This document shows, one piece after another, positions 31,443-43,377 of a stretch of DNA of 64,000 nucleotides. The stretch covers positions 7,579 to 71,578 of the forward strand of contig DKSK01000012.1 in NCBI GenBank assembly GCA_002472565.1. The letters are read 5' to 3'. Each line of letters begins with the position of its first letter. Position 1 is the first letter of the stretch. The stretch comes from Bacteroidales bacterium UBA7258 (GTDB lineage Bacteria > Bacteroidota > Bacteroidia > Bacteroidales > UBA932). The notes beneath the pieces are model-generated. The model made no database searches. It was not told the DNA's origin and saw only the letters and a list, made by a program, of their open reading frames with translations. The translations under genes and the position numbers were made by a program.

Positions 31443-32477
31443 TCAGATTTCGTGGCACCAGAGGTGGGTGTCGGGGAGTTCTCCGAACTGAATGCCGGTG
31501 ATCTGTTTGTAGAGCCGCTGACAGACCGCTCCCACCTCGCCATGGTCGAAGAACTTATAAGAGGCTGAAACCTCAGGTTCCTCAAGCACAGGCTTTAGGT
31601 CAATATGCGACATCGGGGTAATAACGACTGCTGTTCCGCAGGCGGCCGCCTCGTCGAATTCGGAAAGTTCCCCTACAGGGATCTTTCTCTTTTCAACCTC
31701 CATGCCGAAGTCTTTGGCAACCTGCTGGAGAGACTTGTTCGTGATAGAAAGAAGCACGCTGTCCGAAAGCGGAGTGATGTACTTGTTCCCCTTGATGGCG
31801 AAGAAGTTGGACGAGCCGAACTCATCTATATACTCCCTGGTCTGGGAATTGAGGTACAGGAGCTCGGTGTAGCCTTGTTCATGGGCTATCTTGTAAGGCT
31901 TGAAGGTGGAGGCATAGTTGGCCCCGATCTTATAGCTTCCAGAACCCTTCGGAGCCGCGCGATCGTAATTTCCCGGTATGACGGCGGAGAAAGACTTCAG
32001 ATGCTCGCCATAGTATGAGCCGGCCGGAGCGCACATCACGGCGAAGATGGCCTCAGGATAAGGGACGAGCTGCATCTGCGGGTGCATGCCCATAAGGAGA
32101 GGGCGGAGATACATTGAAGCCTGATGGCCGTAAGGAGGCAGGAATTCAAGGTTGTTCAGTACACACTCTTTACACATCTCTATGAACATCTCTTTCCTGG
32201 GAACCGGGAGGCCCAGGTAGGCGGCTGTCCTCTGGAGCCTCGCGGCGTTCTCGTCCGGACGGAACATCACTTTCCGCCCGTCTTTCTGGGTGAAGGCTTT
32301 CAGTCCCTCGAAGCAGGAGATGGCATAATGGAACACCTGCGCGAAGGGGTCGAAGGTGAAGGAGAAGGTCTCTGTCTTTTCAACAGGAGACCATTTTCCG
32401 TCTTTGTAATGGGAAAAGATGACTGTTCTTGTCCTGTAGGCGTCAAAACCCAATTTGTCCCAATCGATTTCTTTCAT
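31443..32477 (-). CDS. ilvE: Branched-chain amino acid aminotransferase
   Basis: FHYAISCFEGLKA, FRPDENAARL, LYLRP, KIGANYA, EFGSSNFF and EAAACGTAVVITP. Confidence 0.95.
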   Translation of the reverse strand: MKEIDWDKLGFDAYRTRTVIFSHYKDGKWSPVEKTETFSFTFDPFAQVFHYAISCFEGLKAFTQKDGRKVMFRPDENAARLQRTAAYLGLPVPRKEMFIEMCKECVLNNLEFLPPYGHQASMYLRPLLMGMHPQMQLVPYPEAIFAVMCAPAGSYYGEHLKSFSAVIPGNYDRAAPKGSGSYKIGANYASTFKPYKIAHEQGYTELLYLNSQTREYIDEFGSSNFFAIKGNKYITPLSDSVLLSITNKSLQQVAKDFGMEVEKRKIPVGELSEFDEAAACGTAVVITPMSHIDLKPVLEEPEVSASYKFFDHGEVGAVCQRLYKQITGIQFGELPDTHLWCHEI

Positions 32478-32498
32478 GATGATAATTTGTTAAGTTCT

Positions 32499-33560
32499 TT
32501 AGATATGCTTCGCGACCCAGTCTCCGACCTCGGAGGTGGAATAGGCCCGCTCTCCCTCCCTGGCGAGGTCTTCGGTTACGACCCCTGCCTCGATGGAGGC
32601 GCTCACGGCCTTGCGTATGGCTTCTCCTTCCTTCATGAGCCCGAAGGAATATTCGAACATCATGGCGGCGGAGAGTATGGCCGCCAGAGGATTGGCTATG
32701 TTCTTGCCGGCGGCCTGGGGATAGGAGCCGTGGATAGGTTCGAAGAGGGAGGTGTGTTCGCCGATGGAGGCGGAAGCGAGAAGCCCCATGGAGCCTGAAA
32801 TGCAGCTGGCCTCGTCGGTCAGAATGTCCCCGAAGGTGTTCTCGGTCACGATGACGTCGAAGAACTTAGGGCAGCGGATGAGCTGCATGGAGGCATTGTC
32901 CACATACATGTAGTCGGTCTTCACGTCAGGATATGAAGCTTCCATCTCCTGGGCGGCCTGCCTCCACAGACGGGAGGTTTCGAGGACGTTGGCCTTGTCC
33001 ACGACGGTCAGATGATGACGGCGGCGTCCGGAATATTCAAAAGCCAGTTTGAGGATACGTTCGATTTCATAGCGATGGTAGACGTTGGTGTCGAAGGCCG
33101 TATCTCCATTGTCACGGCGGCCCTTCTCTCCGAAGTACATTCCTCCTGTAAGTTCCCTAATGCAGACGAAATCGGCCCCTCGGACAAGTTCTTCTTTGAG
33201 CGGGGACTTGTACAGAAGGGACTCGAAGGTCTCCACCGGACGGATGTTGGCATAGAGGCCGAGTCTCTTCCGGATGGCGAGGAGGCCCTGCTCCGGACGA
33301 ACCTTCGAGGCAGGGTCGTTGTCGTATTTCGGATCCCCCACGGCGCCGAAGAGCACGGCATCAGAATCCATGCATATCCTATGGCTCTCTTCTGGGTAAG
33401 CATCGCCATATCTGTCTATCGCGCAGGCCCCTACATAGGCGAGAGTGTATTCGGCGCTGTGGCCGAATTTCGCGCAGACGGCATTCACAGCCTTGACCGC
33501 CTCTCTGACAACTTCGGGACCTATTCCGTCCCCCGGTACTTTTGCTATTCTGAGTTTCAT
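32499..33560 (-). CDS. leuB: 3-isopropylmalate dehydrogenase
   Basis: [42 protein letters not shown] and EPIHGSYP. Confidence 0.97.
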
Positions 33561-35098
33561 AGCTTGATGATAGTAGAATTTTCAATAAGGTTCAACATTT
33601 TAATGGTGGCCTTTATCGCCGCCTCAGTCTGGTCGGAATCCACCCCGCGGGTCTTGAAATGACACCCGTCATAGTCCCATGTAATCGTGGTGACGACCAA
33701 GGCGTCGGTCTTCCCCCCGGGAGGTATGTTGACATGGTAATCGCTCAGCAGAGGATGGGTCTTCCCCAGCTCTCCATAGATTTTCCACAGGGCCTTCATG
33801 AAGGCGTCATATTGGCCGTCTCCCTGGGCCGTATCTTCGTATTCTTTTCCTAAGATATTGATTCTCAGGGTAGCTACCGGTCTCATGCCCCTAGCCAGCT
33901 GGAGACTGTAATTGACGATATGGATATTCTCATGCTGGGCTTCCCCTCCTTTGAGGACATCGGCTATGATGAATGGCAGGTCTTCTGCGCTCATGCTCTC
34001 CTTCTTGTCGCCCAGTTCTACGACCCTGTCCGTCACCAGCTTCATCTGCTCAGGAGTCAGGCTGATTCCAAGCTGCTCCAGGTTCTGGACGATGTTCGCC
34101 TTGCCGCTGGTCTTCCCGAGGGCATACTGCCTCGTCCTCCCGAACCTTTCCGGGATGAGCGCGTTCTGATAGAGGCCGGCCTTCTTGTCTCCGTCGGCAT
34201 GGACCCCGCTGGTCTGGGTGAATACGGATTCCCCGACGATCGGCTTGTTCTCCGGAATCCTGATTCCCGAGATTGTTTCGACATAGCGGCACACATGCAT
34301 CAATCTCTTTTCATCCATGGAGTTACGAACATGGAGCTGGTCATTCAGCACCCCTATGACGCTGGAGACAGGGACGTTCCCTGTCCGCTCCCCGAGACCG
34401 TTGACACTCACATGAAGCCCCTTGATTCCGGCCTTCACTGCCTCGTAGACGTTCGCTGTAGCGAGGTCATAATCATTGTGGGCGTGGAAGTCGAATTTCA
34501 GTCCGGGATAACGGGAAATCATCTCCGAGCAGAGTCCGAAAGTCTGGTCAGGATTCAGGATGCCGAGAGTGTCGGGGAGCATGAAGCGGCGGATCCCTTT
34601 ATTTTTCAGCGAGTCGATGAGGAACCAGATGTAATCCTTCGAGGAGAGCATTCCGTTGGACCAGTCCTCGAGATAAAGATTCACGTCAAGACCCTTCTCC
34701 AAGGCAAGGCGGATATTCTCCGAAATGTCGTTCAGATGCTCCTGCGGAGTCTTCCGCAGCTGCCCCTCAAGATGTTTGAGAGAGCCCTTGGCCAGCAAGT
34801 TCAGTACTTTTCCGCCGCAGGAAGCGATCCAGTCGACGGAGAGCCCCTTGTCCACGAAGCCCAGCACCTCGACCTGAGGCAGGTGCCCTGAGGAAGAGGC
34901 CCAGGCGCAGATTTTCGAGAAGGCCTGTTTTTCGCCCTCCGAAACCCTGGCTGAACCGACCTCTATTCTGTCCACCTTCAGCTCTTCGAGGAGCATTCGG
35001 GAAATCGCGAGCTTTTCGTTTCCGTTGAAAGAAACTCCGGCCGTCTGCTCCCCGTCGCGCAGGGTGGTATCCATTATCTCTATGTATCTCTCACTCAT
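33557..35098 (-). CDS. cimA: (R)-citramalate synthase (Leptospira/Bacteroidetes CimA type)
   Basis: [32 protein letters not shown] and HAHNDY match CimA rather than LeuA. ATG 35098 overlaps the leuD stop. Confidence 0.85.
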
Positions 35099-35687
35099 GG
35101 GCTCTCTCATAATCCTCGATGTCCTTCCTGTGGCTCAGCAGGTAGTCGATGTCGTCCAGGCCCTCCATAAGACAGTACTTCTTGTAGGGGTTTATCTCGA
35201 AGCTTTCCGACTTCCCGGTCTTGAGATTGCTTACCTTCTGGCCTGGCAGGTCGATGCGGACCCTCTCTCCGTGGTCGGCGCCGATGCTGTCGAAGAGTTC
35301 TTTGAGAAAGGCCTCGCTGACCGTCACCGGAAGCACGAAATTATTCAGCTCGTTGTTTTTGTGGATGTCGGCGAAGGCGCTGGAAATCACTGCCCGGAAG
35401 CCGTAACCTGCTATGGCCCAGGCGGCATGTTCACGGCTGGAGCCACTTCCGAAATTTTTCCCGGCAACCAGGATGCAGCCTCCGTATGAAGGGTCGTTCA
35501 GTACGAAATCCTTGTTGAGGCTCCCGTCGGGGCGGTATCTCCAATCCCTGAAGAGATTCTCCCCGAAGTATTTCTCATCCCTTGTGGTGGCTTTGAGGAA
35601 CCTTGCCGGAATAATCTGGTCGGTGTCCACGTTCTCCAGAGGAAGCGGGACGCAGCTGCTTTCGATTATGTCGAATTTCTGTTTCAT
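35091..35687 (-). CDS. leuD: 3-isopropylmalate dehydratase small subunit
   Basis: NVDTDQIIPARFLK, NFGSGSSREHAAWA and FADI. Confidence 0.97.
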   Translation of the reverse strand: MKQKFDIIESSCVPLPLENVDTDQIIPARFLKATTRDEKYFGENLFRDWRYRPDGSLNKDFVLNDPSYGGCILVAGKNFGSGSSREHAAWAIAGYGFRAVISSAFADIHKNNELNNFVLPVTVSEAFLKELFDSIGADHGERVRIDLPGQKVSNLKTGKSESFEINPYKKYCLMEGLDDIDYLLSHRKDIEDYERAHE

Positions 35688-35694
35688 GGTGAGG

Positions 35695-37062
35695 TCAAAT
35701 TAAGGTTCTGGGATCTGTGACGCAGCCACTCACGGCCGCGGCCGCCGCAGTCAGAGGGGAGGCGAGCATCGTGCGTGCCCCCGGGCCCTGACGTCCTTCG
35801 AAATTGCGGTTGCTGGTCGAAACGGAGTATTTCCCGGCCGGGATCTTGTCGTCATTCATAGCGAGACAGGCGGAACAGCCGGGCTGGCGGATTTCGAAGC
35901 CAGCCTCGCCAAGGACCTTGTCGAGTCCCTCTGCCTTTATCTGTCTGAGGACTTCCCAGGATCCGGGGACCAGCCAGGCTGTTAGCCCTTCGGCCTTGTG
36001 CCTACCGGCGGCTATGGACGCGAAGGCTCTGAAGTCCTCGATTCTTCCGTTGGTGCAAGCCCCGAGAAAGACATAGTCAACCTTCTTGCCGAGCAGTTTC
36101 TCTCCTGCATGGAAACCCATGTAATCCAAGGACTTCGGGGCTGCTTCCGCGGGGATGGAGCCCGTGATTCCGATGCCCATGCCAGGATTGGTCCCATAGG
36201 TTATCATAGGCTCGATGTCTGAGGCGTCGAAGCTTATCTCCTTGTCGAAGACGGCGTCATCTCCGGATTTCAAAGTCTTCCAGCGGGCCACGGCCTTCTC
36301 CCAGTCCCCGTCTTTGGGTGCATAGTCTCTGCCCTTGAGGTATTCGAAGGTTTTCTCGTCGGGAGCGATGAAGCCTCCCCTTGCTCCCATCTCGATGGAG
36401 AGGTTGCACAGGGTGAGCCTTCCCTCCATGGACATGTCTCTGACCACGGAACCGGCATATTCGACGAAATAGCCAGTGGCTCCGGAGGTAGAGATCCTCT
36501 TCATGATATAGAGGGCTACGTCCTTCGGGGTCACGCCTTTTCCAAGCCTGCCTTCCACCCGGATTCTCATGGACTTAGGTTTCTGCTGGAGGATGCATTG
36601 CGAAGCCATCACCATCTCCGCCTCGCTTGTCCCAATTCCGAAGGCGACGGCGCCTACGGCCCCGTGGGTGGATGTGTGCGAATCTCCGCAGACTATCGTC
36701 ATACCTGGGAGCGAAAGCCCTTTCTCGGGTCCTACGACATGGATGATTCCGTTGCGTGGATCCATCATTCCGAAATAGCTCAGGCCGAATTCCTTCGCGT
36801 TTTTCTCCAACGTCTCTACCTGGTGGCGGCCGACAGGATCGGCGATCGGCTTGTCCTGGTCATGGGTAGGGGTGTTGTGGTCCGGCATGCAGAAAATCTT
36901 TTCCGGCCGGAGGCAGCGTATCCCTCTCCGTCTCAAGCCTTCGAAGGCCTGGGGAGTAGTGACTTCATGGCAGTAGAGCCTGTCGATGTACAGCTGTGTG
37001 GTGCCGCCGTCAAGCATTGAAACGACGTGCGAATCCCAGATCTTGTCGAATAAGGTATTCAC
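35695..37062 (-). CDS. leuC: 3-isopropylmalate dehydratase large subunit
   Basis: [49 protein letters not shown] and [12 protein letters not shown]; GTG start. Confidence 0.97.
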
Positions 37063-37080
37063 TTGGACTTGGACTTAGAA

Positions 37081-38133
37081 TTATCTCTTTTCCTGTTTCT
37101 CTGGACGCAGAGCCCTAACCTCGGCTCCGGTCCTCCACATCTCGCTGTTGCGGAGAGCCTCAAGCTCCTTGTTGAGGCCTTCGCGGTAGCCGGGCTTGGA
37201 ATTCGAGTCGATTGAAATCTGAGCCTCGTTTCCGCTCTCCACAGACTGGTAAAGTTTTTCGAAGACCGGCTTCGTGGCGTCATGGAAAGGTCCCATCCAG
37301 TCGAGGGCTCCGCGCTGTGCGGTGGTCGAGCAGTTGGCGTACATCCAGTCCATGCCCTTGTCCGCGAAGAGAGGCATCAGAGACTGGGTCAGTTCCTCGA
37401 CGGTCTCGTTGAAGGCCTCGGAAGGAGTGTGTCCATGCTCCCTGAGCGTCTCGTACTGGGCCAGGAGCATGCCCTGGATGGCTCCCATCAGAGTTCCGCG
37501 CTCCCCGGTGAGGTCGGAGTAGACCTCTCTCTTGAAATCGGTTTCGAAGAGATATCCCGAGCCGATTCCGATTCCGAGGGCGAGGGTGCGTTCGAGAGCC
37601 CTGCCCGTGGCGTCATGATAGACGGCGAATGAAGAATTGACTCCGCGTCCCTCGACGAAGAGAGATCTGAGGGAAGTCCCCGAGCCCTTGGGAGCCACCA
37701 TTATGACATCCACGTCCGCCGGAGGCACGACCCCGGTCCTGTCCTTGTAAGTGATGGCGAAGCCGTGGGAGAAGTAGAGGGCCTTTCCCGGGGTGAGATG
37801 CTTCTTCACCAGAGGCCACTGCTGGATCTGAGCGGCGTCAGAAATGAGATACTCTATGATCGTAGCCCTTTTGCAGGCCTCCTCGATGCTGAAAAGAGTC
37901 TCACCCGGCACCCAGCCGTCTTTCACAGCCTTGTCATAAGATTTCCCTTCGCGCTGGCCTATGATGACCTTGAAACCGTTGTCTCTGAGGTTCAGCCCCT
38001 GTCCTGGACCCTGGATTCCATAGCCGATAATTGCGATGGTCTCGTCCTTGAGAACTTCACGCGCGTGTTCGAGAGTGAATTCTTCGCGGGTCACTACATT
38101 TTCTTCGACTCCGCCGAAACTGATCTTTGCCAT
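37081..38133 (-). CDS. ilvC: Ketol-acid reductoisomerase
   Basis: IGYGIQGPGQGLNLRDNG, FSHGF, APKGSG and SDLTGERGTLMG. Confidence 0.97.
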   Translation of the reverse strand: MAKISFGGVEENVVTREEFTLEHAREVLKDETIAIIGYGIQGPGQGLNLRDNGFKVIIGQREGKSYDKAVKDGWVPGETLFSIEEACKRATIIEYLISDAAQIQQWPLVKKHLTPGKALYFSHGFAITYKDRTGVVPPADVDVIMVAPKGSGTSLRSLFVEGRGVNSSFAVYHDATGRALERTLALGIGIGSGYLFETDFKREVYSDLTGERGTLMGAIQGMLLAQYETLREHGHTPSEAFNETVEELTQSLMPLFADKGMDWMYANCSTTAQRGALDWMGPFHDATKPVFEKLYQSVESGNEAQISIDSNSKPGYREGLNKELEALRNSEMWRTGAEVRALRPEKQEKR

Positions 38134-38144
38134 AATGAAATGCT

Positions 38145-38507
38145 TTATCTGTTGTTGTTTAAATAATTCTGTTTTTCTTCGGTCCTCTCTCGGATGAAGT
38201 CCTTGACCTTCTCCTCTGAGAGCTTGTAGATGCTCTCTTCCGGCGAAGCAATCAGGTCGCCCGGATAGAAAAAGGCCTTGACCACGTCAATTTTGCTCTC
38301 CAGGTGGAGCACCGCATTGCGGATGCTTCTTTCCTCCCCATCGGTCACTATGGTCAGGTAGTGTATCCCCTGGAGGTCCGTCGGGAGGGCCATAAGGCTC
38401 CAGATGCTGAGACCGCGCCTTGTGAAAATATTTGAGAACTGAGAGAGCAGTCCTATCTGGTTTTCGGTGTAGATGATGACCGAATACCTCTTGCACTCAC
38501 TTGCCAT
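38145..38507 (-). CDS. ilvN: Acetolactate synthase small (regulatory, ACT) subunit
   Basis: YTENQIGLLSQFSNIFTRRGLSI ACT motif; located between ilvB and ilvC; only 120 aa. Confidence 0.85.
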   Translation of the reverse strand: MASECKRYSVIIYTENQIGLLSQFSNIFTRRGLSIWSLMALPTDLQGIHYLTIVTDGEERSIRNAVLHLESKIDVVKAFFYPGDLIASPEESIYKLSEEKVKDFIRERTEEKQNYLNNNR

Positions 38508-40224
38508 AGCCGTACATTTCTTTTCCGTTCAACATTATCTCGGTGATAGGCTTTCCCGGCGCCACCATAGGCATGACGTCATCCTCTTCATCGACATGAA
38601 TATCAAGGATCGCCGGGGCGTCATCGCTCAGCGCCGCCTCCACCTCCCCCGCAAGGGCCTCCCTTTCCGAAACCACAGAACAGCGTATGCCATAGGCCGA
38701 AGCTATGCCTGCATAGTCTGGATTGAGCATCCTTGTTTGGGAATATCTCTTCTTGAAGAAGAGTTCCTGCCACTGGCGGACGTTACCGAGCCAGTTGTTG
38801 TTGAGGATGAAGATCTTGACCCCCGCCTTCTCCTGCATTATGGTGCCGAGTTCCTCTATCGTCATCTGGATCCCTCCGTCTCCGACGAAGAGGCAGACTC
38901 TTCTTTCGGGGGCTCCGATCTTGGCCCCTATTGCCGCAGGGAGGCCGAAGCCCATGGTCCCGAGGCCGCCGGAAGAGATGAAACTCCGTCCCTCCATGAA
39001 TCTGGAATATCTTGCGGCTATCATCTGGTTCTGTCCGACATCTGTCACGATGAGAGCCTTTCCATGGGAGGCCTCTGCCACCGCGTCAACGACTTCGCCC
39101 ATCTTGATGAAGCCCTCATGGGGATGGACCTGGGGATCGATGACCTTCTCCTGCTCGACCTTGCGGCAGGCCTTGAAACTCTCTATCCATTCTTTATGTT
39201 CATGCCTTGCAATTCTCCCCGTCAGTTCCCTGAGGACCGTCTTGGCATCCCCCACGATGCCCACGTCCACCGGGATGATCTTTCCGACTTCGCAGGGGTC
39301 TATGTCGATGTGGATTATCTTCGCCTGCTTCGCATAGGTGGAGACGGTCCCGGTCACCCTGTCGTCGAATCTCATTCCTACAGCCACGAGCACATCACAT
39401 TCGTTGGTCTTGATGTTCGGAGCTATGCAGCCGTGCATTCCTATCATTCCCATGAAAAGCGGATCGTCAGAAGCCAGGGCGCTCAGGCCTAGGAGAGTCG
39501 AACCGGCCGGGATGCCGCCTTTGTGCAGAAAATCCCTGAGTTCTTCTTCCGCCCCACCGAGGGTCACCCCCTGGCCGAAAACCACGAAGGGCCTTTCAGC
39601 CTGGTTTAGCAACATCGCCGCCTCCGCTATCGACTCGTCCGAGGGCTTAGGGCAGGGAATATAGCTCCGGATGAAGCCACATTCCTTGAATTGGAAGTCG
39701 ACCATGCCGTTCTGCGCATCCTTGGTCACATCCAGCACCACAGGCCCAGGGCGGCCGCTTCTGGCTATGAAGAAGGCCCTCGAAACCGCCCAAGCCATAT
39801 CCTTCGCGTCCCGGACCTGATAGTTCCACTTCGTGATGGAACCGGTCATGCCGATGAGGTCTGCCTCCTGGAAGGCGTCCGTGCCCAAGGCGGAGTTGGA
39901 CACCTGGCCGGCGATTACCACGACGGGGGTAGAATCCACCTTCGCATCCATGATGCCGGTTATCACATTCGTAGCTCCGGGACCCGATGTCACCAGCACG
40001 ACTCCTGTCTTTCCTGTAGCCCTCGCATAGCCCTGGGCCGCATGTATGGCTCCTTGTTCATGGCGGACCAGGATGTGGCGCAGCCTGTCTTTGAAGTCAA
40101 AGAGTTTGTCGTAGACGGGCATTATCTGTCCCCCCGGGTAGCCGAAGACGGTGTCCACCCCCTCGAATGCGAGGCAGCGGAGAAGGGCTTCTGAACCATT
40201 TATTCTATCCTTTTCCATATCCAT
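38497..40224 (-). CDS. ilvB: Acetolactate synthase large subunit
   Basis: FGYPGG, RHEQGA, TSGPGATN, DAFQE, and the TPP motif GDGGIQM…NNNWLG. Confidence 0.97.
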   Translation of the reverse strand: MDMEKDRINGSEALLRCLAFEGVDTVFGYPGGQIMPVYDKLFDFKDRLRHILVRHEQGAIHAAQGYARATGKTGVVLVTSGPGATNVITGIMDAKVDSTPVVVIAGQVSNSALGTDAFQEADLIGMTGSITKWNYQVRDAKDMAWAVSRAFFIARSGRPGPVVLDVTKDAQNGMVDFQFKECGFIRSYIPCPKPSDESIAEAAMLLNQAERPFVVFGQGVTLGGAEEELRDFLHKGGIPAGSTLLGLSALASDDPLFMGMIGMHGCIAPNIKTNECDVLVAVGMRFDDRVTGTVSTYAKQAKIIHIDIDPCEVGKIIPVDVGIVGDAKTVLRELTGRIARHEHKEWIESFKACRKVEQEKVIDPQVHPHEGFIKMGEVVDAVAEASHGKALIVTDVGQNQMIAARYSRFMEGRSFISSGGLGTMGFGLPAAIGAKIGAPERRVCLFVGDGGIQMTIEELGTIMQEKAGVKIFILNNNWLGNVRQWQELFFKKRYSQTRMLNPDYAGIASAYGIRCSVVSEREALAGEVEAALSDDAPAILDIHVDEEDDVMPMVAPGKPITEIMLNGKEMYGYGK

Positions 40225-40226
40225 GC

Positions 40227-42068
40227 TCAATCTTTTATCATTCTTACCGCCCCCTTGTCGGCAGAACTTACCATGGAGGCGTAGGCCTTGATGCTCCTTG
40301 AAACCACCCTCTCCCTCATCGGAGGCGTGAAAGCCTTCTCCCCCTTCGCCTTTTCCTCCTTCCTCCGTTCTTCTAGCTCCTCCTCCGTGAGCCTGACATT
40401 GATGCTCCTATTCTCGATGTCTATTTCAATGAGGTCTCCGTCTCGCACAAGAGCTATCTCACCGCCGGAGGCCGCCTCAGGAGAAATGTGCCCGATGCTA
40501 AGGCCGGAAGTGCCCCCGCTGAACCTTCCGTCGGTTATCAGAGCGCAGGCCTTTCCGAGATGCCTCGACTTGATATAGGAAGTAGGGTACAGCATCTCCT
40601 GCATTCCGGGCCCTCCTTTCGGTCCTTCATAGGTGATGACCACGACATCTCCCGCCTGGACTTTCCCGCCGAGGATTCCATCGCAGGCGGCTTCCTGAGA
40701 GTCGAAGACCCTGGCCCTTCCTTCGAACTTCCAGAGAGACTCGTCCACTCCTGCCGTCTTGACGACGCAGCCGTCACGGGCAATGTTCCCGTAGAGAACA
40801 GCGAGACCCCCATCCTTCGAATAAGCGTGGGCGATATCTCTTATGCAGCCTTCGGCCCTGTCGGTGTCAAAACTCTGATAATAAGTCTCTTGCGAGCCCA
40901 CTTCCGTGCTGAAGACCCCCGCCCCCGCGCTCGAATAGATTATCTCAGCCTCCTCGCAGCATTTCGGGCTCATGATGCAATATTTCTCGATTTCCTCCGC
41001 GAGAGTCATCCCGTCGACACGCCTTTGGGAGGTGTCTACAAGGCCGCCCTTAGCAAGTTCATTCATGATGGATACTACCCCGCCTGCCCTGTTCACATCC
41101 TGGACATGGTACTTCGCCGTGTTCGGAGCAAGTTTGCAGATGCATGGGACCTTCCTTGAGAGAAGGTCTACGTCCTTCAGCTTGAAATCGGCTCCAGCCT
41201 CATTTGCGGCCGCCAGCAGGTGCAGGACGGTGTTGGTGGAACCTCCCATGGCGATATCCAGCGTCATGGCGTTGAGGAAGGCCTCTCTGCTGCAGATGCT
41301 CCTCGGCAGAACGCTCTCGTTGCCGTCCTGGTAATAGGCATAAGTGTTCTTTACGATAAGCTTGGCCGCCTTTTTGAAAAGTTCGACCCGGTTCTTGTGC
41401 GTGGCCACTATGGTGCCGTTCCCCGGGAGAGACAGACCGATGGCCTCGGTAAGGCAGTTCATAGAGTTTGCCGTGAACATCCCCGAGCAGCAGCCGCAGC
41501 CCGGGCAGGCGTTCAGTTCGATTTTCCGGCTTTCTTCATCGCTCACGGTATTGTCGGCAGATACTACCATCGCATCAATCAGATCCAGTTTTCTTTCACT
41601 TCCAGGATAGCGGCCAGCTTCCATCGGACCACCCGAAACGAAAACAGCAGGGATGTTGAGCCGCATCGCGGCCATGAGCATGCCCGGAGTAACCTTGTCG
41701 CAGTTACTGATGCAGACCATCGCGTCGGCCTTATGGGCATTAACCATGTACTCGATGCTGTCAGCTATTATTTCGCGGGAGGGGAGAGAATAGAGCATTC
41801 CGTCATGACCCATGGCTATTCCGTCATCGACGGCAATCGTATTGAATTCCGCCGCATAACAGCCCAGCTTCTCTATCTCAGCCTTTACAGTCTGGCCGAT
41901 TTCATGCAGATGAGTATGCCCCGGCACGAATTGCGTGAAAGAATTGACTATGGCTATAACCGGCCTGCCCATCTGCCAGGGCTTCATGCCGGCGGCCACC
42001 CAGAGGGCTCTCGCCCCAGCCATTCTCCGTCCATCCATCGTGATGGCGCTTCTAAGTTTATTTTTCAT
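40227..42068 (-). CDS. ilvD: Dihydroxy-acid dehydratase
   Basis: [46 protein letters not shown] and DGRFSG. Confidence 0.97.
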
Positions 42069-42161
42069 ATCTATTTGTTAGTTTTCCGACCAAACAAGCT
42101 CCTCGCTCCACTCCTTCACCATCCCTCCGGCCCACATCTTTTTTGATAAGCCCCTGAAAAC

Positions 42162-42191
42162 AAAAAAACCTCCCCGAATCTTCGGGAAGGC
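42162..42191 (-). terminator. Attenuator terminator of the ilv-leu operon
   Basis: Minus strand GCCUUCCCGAA-GA-UUCGGGGAGGU followed by a U run. Confidence 0.85.
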
Positions 42192-42217
42192 TATATATGG
42201 ATAAATATCTGACTATA

Positions 42218-42301
42218 TCATCTTATTGTACGCCTTCCCTGTCCTCGAATGCTAAGCACTAGGACGCTAATGGAAATGACGATAATAGATGAATAATTCA
42301 T
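42218..42301 (-). CDS. ilv-leu operon attenuator leader peptide
   Basis: MNYSSIIVISISVLVLSIRGQGRRTIR*: 11 of 27 codons are Ile, Val or Leu; it lies just upstream of the terminator and contains the antiterminator strand. Confidence 0.85.
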   Translation of the reverse strand: MNYSSIIVISISVLVLSIRGQGRRTIR

Positions 42302-42430
42302 ATTCTTTTCTTTCGCTCTGTCGCTAAAGTAGAAAATGCGAAAATCAATTCCAAGGGAAATTTTGCGAAAATCGATTTACTGGCTTTTCAAATGCCCCGT
42401 CCGTGAGGCTTCTTTATCGGCGGAGGTGGC

Positions 42431-43258
42431 TCAGTCGGCGTCGAGGAGAACCGGGAATTTATTGCGGAATGAGAATAGCGAATCCATGTCGAGGTCTGCG
42501 GAAGTGATCTCTTCCGCCCCGTTCCTGCATGCGGAGAGTACTTCTCCATAAGGATTAATTATGACAGAGTGGCCGTCATATTCGCAAGACGGGTCTTTGC
42601 CTACCCTGTTCACTCCGACTACAAAGCACTGATTCTCAATGGCTCTCGCTTTAAGCAGGCTGTCCCAGGCACTGATCCTCTGGGTCGGCCAACTTGCCAC
42701 GTAGACCGCAATATCGTATTCGGCTCTCGCCGAAGTCTCTCTCTGTGCGGCATGAGAGTCTGCTTTCTCTAAACGGTTTCTGGAGAAGACGGGGAATCGC
42801 AGGTCGTAGCAGACCTGAAGAAGAAAACGCAGGCCTTCGTATTCCGCCACTGTCTTCTCTTTTCCAGCGGTGAAGCGTTTGTCCTCGCCGGCAAATGAGA
42901 ACAGGTGTCTTTTGTCATATTTCGAGAATGTCCCATCCGGCTTGACGAAATAGAAGCGGTTGAAGTAGCTGCTCCCGACTTCGTCCGCTTTCCCACCAGC
43001 ATCATTCACGGCAGTCGCCACGCTCCCAGCCACGGCGCAATCATACTGCTTTGCCAGCTTTTTCATCCACTCCAGCGAGGCCCCGTCACGCTCAGCCGTA
43101 AAGGCAGGAGAGGTGATGAAACCTGTCGAAAACATCTCCGGCAAGACAAGGACTCCTCCCTCCGCAACCCCCGCCTTGGAGATAAGGTCCTCGATATGGG
43201 CGCGGTTAGCCTTTCCGTCACACCAGATGATATTACATTGACAAAGATAGACTTTCAT
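42431..43258 (-). CDS. Carbon-nitrogen hydrolase (YafV/omega-amidase-like)
   Basis: Glu-Lys-Cys triad motifs LPEMFSTGF, YDKRHLF and VCYDLRFP. Start re-set to ATG 43258. Confidence 0.9.
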   Translation of the reverse strand: MKVYLCQCNIIWCDGKANRAHIEDLISKAGVAEGGVLVLPEMFSTGFITSPAFTAERDGASLEWMKKLAKQYDCAVAGSVATAVNDAGGKADEVGSSYFNRFYFVKPDGTFSKYDKRHLFSFAGEDKRFTAGKEKTVAEYEGLRFLLQVCYDLRFPVFSRNRLEKADSHAAQRETSARAEYDIAVYVASWPTQRISAWDSLLKARAIENQCFVVGVNRVGKDPSCEYDGHSVIINPYGEVLSACRNGAEEITSADLDMDSLFSFRNKFPVLLDAD

Positions 43259-43377
43259 GACTTGTGCGCCGAATATTTGCCGCCCAGATAATGAACATGT
43301 CATAATCAACTCCGCTCTCAAGCGCACGGTCGATCTGGACAGGAAAATACCGGTCTTCTCCGGCCTTGCCCCACATA

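Follow-up and report, generated by a model that had tools for sequence, protein, structure and literature searches.

The stretch of DNA analysed here (the window) comprises 64,000 nucleotides (nt) from Bacteroidales bacterium UBA7258 (assembly GCA_002472565.1, contig DKSK01000012.1, positions 7,579 to 71,578). On its minus strand, an amidohydrolase gene is followed by an intergenic leader and then by an operon for branched-chain amino acid (BCAA) biosynthesis that starts with ilvD. The leader contains a short open reading frame (ORF) rich in Ile, Leu and Val (ILV) codons and, behind it, a hairpin with a U tract. Based on the results presented below, we suggest that this region is very probably a transcription attenuator of the ilvD operon.

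Organization of the ilvD Leader

The leader ORF reads ATG AAT TAT TCA TCT ATT ATC GTC ATT TCC ATT AGC GTC CTA GTG CTT AGC ATT CGA GGA CAG GGA AGG CGT ACA ATA AGA TGA, so that 11 of its 27 amino acid codons specify Ile (6), Val (3) or Leu (2). The coordinates of all elements are collected in Table 1. The rare Leu codon CUA occurs once and the non-preferred Ile codon AUU four times, and in the long ORFs of this genome CTA makes up 2.5% of the Leu codons and ATT 21.5% of the Ile codons. The codon choice also fits the logic of codon sensing. The ATG is directly preceded by GAAAAGAAU, which is A-rich and has no Shine–Dalgarno sequence. Initiation regions of this kind are usual in Bacteroidetes.

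Segment 2 within the leader ORF is the exact 8-bp complement of GCCUUCCC (42191..42184) in the 5′ arm of the terminator hairpin. The duplex of segments 2 and 3 was calculated at −17.7 kcal/mol (z = −4.5), and none of 200 shuffles was as good. The terminator stem (42192..42167) has 11 pairs and a 4-nt loop and runs into a tract of seven U; the hairpin alone has −16.5 to −17.2 kcal/mol. The minimum free energy (MFE) of the 171-nt leader is −48.5 kcal/mol (z = −4.2 relative to shuffles). A separate local hairpin over the control codons was present in both the MFE and centroid folds, and it may serve as a pause or spacer element.

These elements had been proposed in a first-pass annotation made from the letters and a list of ORFs. 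The 84-nt ORF with its six Ile, three Val and two Leu, ten of them in codons 6–18, was read directly from the minus strand, as were the U-tailed terminator and the perfect complementarity of leader nt 63–70 to its 5′ arm. The claimed hairpin over the control codons was recovered by folding, and the claimed nine-gene BCAA operon downstream was confirmed by Pfam and NCBIfam gene identities. The −7-like box at 42324–42331 is present where it had been placed, with one departure from the TAnnTTTG consensus.

Table 1. Features of the ilvD leader, its operon and neighbours, and of two further leaders in the same genome.
Feature	Position	Strand	Description
Amidohydrolase gene	42431-43327	minus	upstream neighbour; stop ~240 nt upstream of the terminator
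Promoter −7-like box TACTTTAG	42331..42324	minus	22 nt upstream of leader ATG; one mismatch to Bacteroidetes TAnnTTTG
Leader ORF	42301..42218	minus	ATG...TGA, 27 codons + UGA; peptide MNYSSIIVISISVLVLSIRGQGRRTIR, read from the sequence
Control codons 6–18 (I I V I S I S V L V L S I)	42248..42286	minus	10/13 Ile/Val/Leu
Possible segment 1 CGUCAUUUCC	42272..42281	minus	can pair with segment 2 as protector (MFE fold)
Local hairpin GUCCUAGUGC-UUA-GCAUU-CG-AGGAC	42265..42241	minus	over codons 13–21
Segment 2 GGGAAGGC	42239..42232	minus	antiterminator 5′ strand; leader nt 63–70, codons 21–24
Segment 3 GCCUUCCCGA	42182..42191	minus	antiterminator 3′ strand = terminator 5′ arm; family consensus GCCUUUCUC
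Segment 4	42157..42177	minus	terminator 3′ arm UCGGGGAGGU, then U tract UUUUUUUGUUUU
Second short ORF MWAGGMVKEWSEELVWSEN	42078-42137	minus	3 Trp; in the 99-nt purine-rich terminator–ilvD spacer
Operon ilvD-ilvB-ilvN-ilvC-leuC-leuD-cimA-leuB-ilvE	31443..42068	minus	Pfam, NCBIfam, ORF map
ilvD	40227-42068	minus	Pfam; ATG at 42068, 99 nt past the terminator stem
ilvN	38145-38507	minus	acetolactate synthase small subunit, 120 aa; ACT_AHAS_ss domain only
HMGL/LeuA-dimer synthase	33557-35110	minus	517 aa; CimA-like, not LeuA
Paralogous attenuator (locus L104)	G000:C10:~100110-100244	plus	own genome, outside the window; TAGATTTG box, short ORF MNLYFIISLSLILASDT
Trp leader peptide MMNFNAYWWWRFLQLKRS (WWW)	G000:C5:6937-6993	minus	own genome, outside the window

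The arrangement of leader ORF and terminator before ilvD is far beyond chance. Both strands of the genome (2.24 Mb, 52.8% G+C, 31 contigs) were scanned for ATG-started ORFs of 10–45 amino acids (aa). ORFs with at least eight I, L or V in ten residues were counted as ILV-rich, and a hairpin with ΔG ≤ −9 kcal/mol and a U tract within about 110 nt as a terminator. Among 31,504 short ORFs, 54 were ILV-rich, and exactly one of these 54, the ORF before ilvD, was followed by a terminator.

Conservation and Covariation of the Leader

The search for orthologous leaders before ilvD in related genomes, proposed in the first-pass annotation, gave an ILV-rich short ORF 80–270 nt upstream of ilvD in 16 of the 18 loci from genus and order relatives. 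Such an ORF also precedes ilvD in about 35 loci of named Bacteroidota, among them Bacteroides, Phocaeicola, Paludibacter, Alistipes, Odoribacter laneus, Heminiphilus, Prolixibacteraceae, Saccharicrinis, Tangfeifania and Ancylomarina. At the ilvD loci examined in Prevotella, Segatella and most Muribaculaceae, the leader ORF was not found. Thirteen ilvD loci from outside Bacteroidota (Desulfobulbaceae, Spirochaetes, Fibrobacter and others) had no ILV-rich ORF of ≤30 aa close upstream; the only ILV-rich ORFs there were atypical, with 54–55 aa (L079, >400 nt upstream; L103, without a terminator). The leader peptides vary freely in length and sequence, and the I/L/V run is always kept. Upstream of the leader ATG, a perfect TAnnTTTG box was found at a distance of 15–43 nt (mode about 20) in most orthologous loci, and the box of the window matches this spacing.

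In 45 loci, a terminator lies 19–59 nt past the leader stop, with striking conservation of the 5′ arm (consensus AGCCUUUCUC). In each locus, this arm paired best with an upstream segment of the consensus UGAGAAAGGU. The strength of the pairing had a mean z of −2.8 relative to dinucleotide shuffles, with p ≤ 0.05 in 30 of the 45 loci. Changes compensated in all three strands were observed, such as GCCAUUCU with GAGAAUGGU, GGCCCUUCC with GGAAGGGCU and GCUUUCCGG with CCGGGAA. The upstream regions bound their own terminator arm at −12.05 kcal/mol and foreign arms at −9.05 kcal/mol, a difference reached in none of 10,000 permutations (p < 1e-4).

Both helices covary across the Bacteroidales loci. 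In an unconstrained MAFFT alignment of 41 loci (A1), 94% of the cells of the terminator helix were paired (41–68% in slid controls), compensatory changes occurred in all ten pairs, and the covariation of 0.434 versus 0.222 was not reached by any of 500 shuffles. For the antiterminator helix, 83% of the cells were paired (46–61% in slid controls) and the covariation was 0.269 versus 0.214, reached by one of 500 shuffles. Double changes in this helix occupied 17 cells, against 7.7 ± 2.3 expected.

In the loop between segments 2 and 3 (window ~42192–42231), many members of A1 have a small hairpin immediately behind segment 2 (GUAUG...CAUAC, GUGUA...UACAC, UGUAC...GUACA). Between this hairpin and the terminator, there is an A-rich stretch similar to AAGAUA. 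The corresponding sequence of the window is GAUAUAGUCAGAUAUUUAUC. These features may cause pausing or make the antiterminator more stable.

The contigs of two near-identical strains differ from the window by single-nucleotide changes, insertions or deletions on the flanks, at 42341, 42381, 42382 and 42452 on one side and at 42090, 42139 and 42074 on the other; those at 42139 and 42074, both in the spacer before ilvD, are deletions of 3 nt and 1 nt. Between 42157 and 42331 there is no such variant, which is weak evidence of constraint.

Covariance Model and Paralogous Leaders

A covariance model of the switch core, R1, was built from segment 2 (UGAGAAAGGU-like), the A/U-rich loop and the GCCUUUCUC terminator. 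It had two matches in this genome, the window (39.5 bits) and C10:100162-100244 (41.1 bits). The window belongs to the seed, so its score is partly circular; the second match is non-seed. Across the order, R1 matched in 99 of 301 genomes, often two to four times per genome. Among the 30 best matches, 19 lie before ilvD and nine before leuA, and an I/L/V-rich short ORF ends at the start of the match in 26 of these 28; none was detected at L110 (ilvD) and L128 (leuA). At one of the remaining two (L118), there is an ILV-rich ORF and no downstream gene within the locus, which brings the ILV-rich short ORFs to 27 of the 30. The other (L127, G119:C4:40733-40816, 58.8 bits) precedes a gltB-like glutamate synthase gene, and its short ORF, MINFSSKTKKSDKKTGRVR, is not ILV-rich. 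Either R1 falsely recognised a similar terminator here, or the switch core was reused with a different sensor.

Outside the order, R1 gave six matches with E ≤ 1e-4 in five of about 197 genomes. Two of them (L137 and L140) are genuine ILV leaders before ilvE. The other four have neither an ILV-rich short ORF nor an ilv or leu gene downstream, and so they are probably chance matches to terminators.

The second match in this genome belongs to a paralogous attenuator (L104). Its segment 2 is GGAAAGGC, and its terminator, GGAGCCUUCCCG...CGGGGAGGCUUUUUU, lies 52 nt before a stand-alone leuA (NF002086, 711 bits, above cut-off). The leader peptide has four Leu and three Ile but no Val, and two of its codons are the rare CUA. 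The same tendency was seen in the family: the ilvD leaders contain 19% Ile, 19% Val and 17% Leu, with about 1–3% each of Phe, Met, Ala and Gly, and the leuA leaders contain 26% Ile, 2% Val and 20% Leu. This composition points to codon sensing rather than to a membrane peptide.

The genome also has a Trp leader peptide with WWW; a terminator (−15 kcal/mol) comes after 44 nt, and trpB-trpE-trpG-trpD-trpC-trpF-trpA lies behind it. The Rfam model Bacteroid-trp (RF01692) had no match in this genome, the WWW trp leader included.

Ribosome Position and the Proposed Switch

To follow the effect of the ribosome, the leaders were folded with a footprint of 28 nt (A-site −15 to +12) forced unpaired. With the A-site on codons 6–8 or 11–13, the MFE structure of the window leader changed to the antiterminator of segments 2 and 3. 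The terminator probability was 0.35–0.86 on codons 6–8 and 10–14, with the lowest values (0.35–0.41) on codons 11–13; it was 0.93 on codon 9, and it remained at 0.98 for all positions between codon 15 and the stop, both included. The moment of decision was represented by transcripts that end before the 3′ arm of the terminator. In such transcripts from 45 loci, sequestration of the terminator 5′ arm was 0.79 with the ribosome on the I/L/V run versus 0.41 with the ribosome at the stop (Wilcoxon p = 6e-13). The window alone gave 0.81 and 0.42.

The stop codon is also positioned with respect to segment 2. A ribosome terminating at the in-frame stop covers 85% of segment 2 on average, and one at the first stops of the other two frames 21% (p = 1e-14). 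At least half of segment 2 is covered in 38 of 41 loci, and in 19 segment 2 begins with the stop codon itself. Relatives of the window often have UGA at this place. In the window and two congeners (L003 and L018), the embedded UGA is lost: segment 2 has become GGGAAGGC, the terminator arm has changed in parallel to GCCUUCCC, and the leader ORF extends six codons further. The stop of the window lies 11 nt 3′ of segment 2, so its terminating ribosome covers only about half of the segment.

The folding of the leader that the first-pass annotation had called for thus recovered the terminator, the hairpin over the codons and a switch that depends on the footprint. Its central claim, that a stall frees the antiterminator and that translation to the stop permits the terminator, agrees with the footprint folds, the conservation and covariation, and the placement of the stop codon.

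In the MFE fold of the window, segment 1 can pair with segment 2 as a protector (CGUCAUUUCC with GGGAAGGCG, −9.2 kcal/mol), but this pairing did not surpass codon shuffles (z = −0.8). In the family, the mean z of this pairing against codon shuffles was −0.33, with 5 of 41 loci significant. The protector was dropped as a family feature because it was no better than the codon-shuffled controls.

Genes of the Operon and Its Surroundings

The seventh gene of the operon encodes a synthase that matched NF042433 (CimA) with 648 bits, under the strict cut-off of the model, and LeuA models with ≤315 bits. Given this CimA-like enzyme, the operon seems to serve Ile synthesis via citramalate, for which leuCD and leuB would also be used. 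The genuine leuA is located elsewhere in the genome (C10), and no ilvA was noticed in the window. The last gene is a class IV aminotransferase by Pfam and ilvE by NCBIfam. The ilvN product is short (IlvN and IlvH usually have about 160–170 aa) and had no NCBIfam match at E ≤ 1e-10.

The spacer between the terminator and ilvD contains a second short ORF, MWAGGMVKEWSEELVWSEN, which has an A-rich region upstream and a TAA 9 nt before the ATG of ilvD. In relatives, this spacer has only 14–70 nt and lacks the second short ORF. It may be a chance ORF or one for translational coupling or reinitiation.

The DNA of the window is present in bovine gut metagenomes, and the best named relatives of the ilvD protein are from metagenome-assembled genomes of rumen and gut Bacteroidales. 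The ilvD gene was detected in 9 of 25 genomes of the same genus (that of the window counted); of those lacking the gene, six have a completeness of 90% or more. Consequently, BCAA biosynthesis seems to be variably present in this small-genome rumen genus. Two bovine metatranscriptome runs yielded low-depth contigs over parts of ilvD, one of them reaching 42109 in the spacer, which indicates that ilvD is expressed in vivo.

Interpretation and Alternative Explanations

Based on the above results, we consider the region to be a ribosome-mediated transcription attenuator with a leader peptide, which senses charged tRNA-Ile, tRNA-Val and tRNA-Leu and controls the ilvD operon, with a probability of roughly 0.88. 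This draws directly on the sequence elements, their mutual exclusivity, the conservation and covariation and the footprint-constrained folds; from these we infer where transcription starts, that the leader is translated, that termination takes place in vivo and that the supply of BCAA is what the leader responds to.

Several observations weigh against this interpretation. The promoter box deviates from the consensus at one position, and the transcription start is deduced from it. A conserved protector was not supported, and a truncated transcript free of ribosomes already favours the antiterminator (0.82). In the window copy, a ribosome at the stop covers 5 of the 10 nt of segment 2. The full-length equilibrium folds keep the terminator in many loci even when the ribosome is stalled (median 0.95). 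The switch therefore has to operate kinetically, like the classical attenuators, and the case rests on the truncated-transcript folds together with the covariation. Finally, the RNA evidence is limited to the low-depth contigs of ilvD, none of which covers the leader or the terminator.

Three other explanations were weighed. The hairpin and U tract could be the terminator of the upstream amidohydrolase gene, which lies on the same strand and ends about 240 nt before it, or a generic intergenic terminator, with a short ORF that is there by chance, given the abundance of such ORFs in the genome (31,504). However, the upstream gene is common to only 3 of the 45 loci, while the ORF and terminator stay with ilvD; since the neighbour differs in the other 42, the terminator was rejected as that of the upstream gene. 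Moreover, a promoter-type box sits between this gene and the leader ORF, only 1 of the 54 ILV-rich short ORFs has a terminator behind it, the antiterminator covaries with the terminator and the in-frame stop is positioned on segment 2, all of which leaves a chance arrangement extremely improbable. Only marginally better is the chance that the ORF is the gene of a small hydrophobic membrane peptide with a function of its own, or that the terminated transcript of about 150 nt is a trans-acting small RNA, with incidental control of the operon. The leader peptide is indeed hydrophobic and of transmembrane-like length, the weak Rfam matches below gathering scores are to small RNAs (driven by the terminator), and attenuated leader transcripts can double as small RNAs in other bacteria. 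Yet what is conserved is the I/L/V content and not the sequence or length of the peptide, Phe, Ala, Gly and Met, which are frequent in transmembrane helices, are nearly absent, Val is specifically depleted in the leuA paralogues (2%), and the element stands immediately upstream of ilvD, leuA or ilvE.

It is also conceivable, though very improbable even as the strongest of the three, that translation of the leader acts by another route, such as Rho-dependent polarity, mRNA stability, or an input from a protein or from guanosine tetraphosphate (ppGpp). The retention of the terminator in equilibrium folds with a stalled ribosome would fit this, as would the unusually long 99-nt spacer with its second short ORF (42137-42078), and ilvB is controlled by ppGpp riboswitches in some bacteria (PMC10272879). 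On the other hand, the terminator has a canonical stem and 7-U tract, the antiterminator is conserved, covarying and positioned relative to the stop, no riboswitch family matched in the Rfam scan of 41800–42700, and the long spacer and second short ORF were not found in relatives.

Comparison with Known Systems

The Rfam scan just mentioned (cmscan, 41800–42700, E ≤ 10) gave seven chance-level matches, all far under the gathering scores and mostly carried by the terminator. They included ncr1575, PyrG leader, RcsR1 and PyrR, with PyrG leader as the only one of leader type. No leader-peptide family (Leu_leader, Thr_leader, His_leader, Trp_leader, RF01692 and others) matched in this interval.

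Leader-peptide attenuation of ilv operons is classical, and the first-pass annotation had likened the layout to that of the E. coli ilvGMEDA attenuator. The short ORF, the terminator and the mutually exclusive antiterminator agree with this comparison; it is an analogy of design without homology, and the protector part was not supported. As in ilvL of E. coli and Salmonella (also ivbL and leuL), the leader ORF is rich in codons for the end products, with the Ile/Val/Leu multivalence of ilvL. An intrinsic terminator likewise precedes the first structural gene, the antiterminator shares a strand with it, and formation of the antiterminator is precluded when the ribosome arrives at the ORF end. 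The leuL leader uses the rare Leu codon CUA, as does the leader of the window. In contrast to ilvL, there is no sequence homology, the window has no Shine–Dalgarno sequence and carries a Bacteroidetes −7 box, and the 1:2 protector or pause hairpin is unsupported in the Bacteroidales element. The operons differ as well, since that of the window starts with ilvD and includes leuCD, leuB and cimA.

Attenuators in Bacteroidetes were reportedly predicted by Vitreschak and co-workers in 2004 and by Lopatovskaya and co-workers in 2010. Within the phylum, a similar system has been described in Flavobacterium psychrophilum, where transcriptome-backed 'leader peptide attenuation elements' were listed at the ilvE(-ilvD-ilvB), trpE, pheA and hisG operons (Guerin et al. 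2021, ISME Commun, PMC9723704, supplement D9, Table S7). The leader of the ilvE operon, MRKFNIIPSIIIAIVIITTAKGML, is an Ile-rich peptide of 25 aa in a structured 5′ region of 437 nt, and Trp (WWW), His and Phe leaders are given for this species too (PMC9723704). Both organisms belong to the same phylum and have an Ile-rich leader of a BCAA operon and a WWW leader in the genome. They differ in class or order and in the first gene of the operon, ilvE there and ilvD here, and the 5′ region of F. psychrophilum is much longer. The R1 matches L137 and L140 likewise have ILV short ORFs before operons that begin with ilvE.

The Bacteroid-trp leader RF01692 has been catalogued for Bacteroidetes (Weinberg et al. 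2010, PMC2864571). It is likewise a leader-type cis-regulatory RNA of an amino acid operon; unlike the element described here, it belongs to the Trp operon, and it matches neither the ilv leader of the window nor the WWW trp leader of the same genome. Recent cataloguing of BCAA leaders proceeds lineage by lineage. In an example from other phyla, a BCAA-rich upstream ORF and a terminator stem control an ilv operon in a similar way, but the first gene is ilvB and the sequence is unrelated. Long 5′ untranslated regions with leader-like short ORFs were described in B. thetaiotaomicron, with ilv not named (Ryan et al. 2020, PMC7366714). Our literature search found no paper describing the Bacteroidales ilvD leader specifically. 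The switch of the window is an uncatalogued example of textbook attenuation that would not surprise a specialist. It is mildly unusual in its unsupported protector, in a stop codon that the family has within the antiterminator strand and that the genus of the window has lost, and in a leuA leader paralogue without Val.

Proposed Mechanism and Significance

We suggest the following course of events for the ilvD leader. Transcription would begin just downstream of the −7 box, and a ribosome would translate the 27-codon leader. With an ample supply of Ile, Val and Leu, this ribosome would pass codons 6–18 and, on nearing the UGA, unwind and then cover segment 2 (GGGAAGGC). With segment 2 masked, segment 3 (GCCUUCCC) would be free to pair with segment 4, the terminator hairpin with its U tract would form, and RNA polymerase would halt about 90–100 nt before ilvD. 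When any of the three amino acids is scarce, the ribosome would stall within codons 6–18, upstream of segment 2. Segment 2 could then pair with segment 3 once the latter is transcribed, the terminator would be blocked, and transcription would read through into ilvD-ilvBN-ilvC-leuCD-cimA-leuB-ilvE. The model predicts that a change of segment 2 (GGGAAGGC to GCCAAGGC) would give constitutive termination, with rescue by compensation in segments 3 and 4.

A wider proposal, to which we assign somewhat less than an even chance, is that the ilvD and leuA leaders of Bacteroidales are paralogous members of one large RNA family outside Rfam. Such a family would have three segments, no conserved protector, initiation independent of a Shine–Dalgarno sequence, and a UGA stop that is normally the first triplet of the antiterminator strand (UGA-GAAAGG). 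The genus of the window would have lost the embedded stop as the helices grew richer in G+C (GAGAAAGG to GGGAAGGC, arm CUUUCUC to CUUCCCG). If so, the window copy would be a natural test of the positional slack that the mechanism tolerates.

With these results, the regulation of BCAA biosynthesis in an uncultured Bacteroidales bacterium from the rumen can be annotated in a concrete and testable way. In this genome, the main operon would answer to Ile, Val and Leu, the separate leuA carries a Val-free Leu/Ile leader, and the trp operon carries a WWW leader. The findings also lend further weight to the view that attenuation of the classical, ribosome-mediated type is common throughout Bacteroidia, despite the absence of Shine–Dalgarno-based initiation in these bacteria. 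Rfam does not yet contain the ilv leader family, and genome annotations probably lack it as well; with a curated model, gut and rumen genomes would be better annotated.

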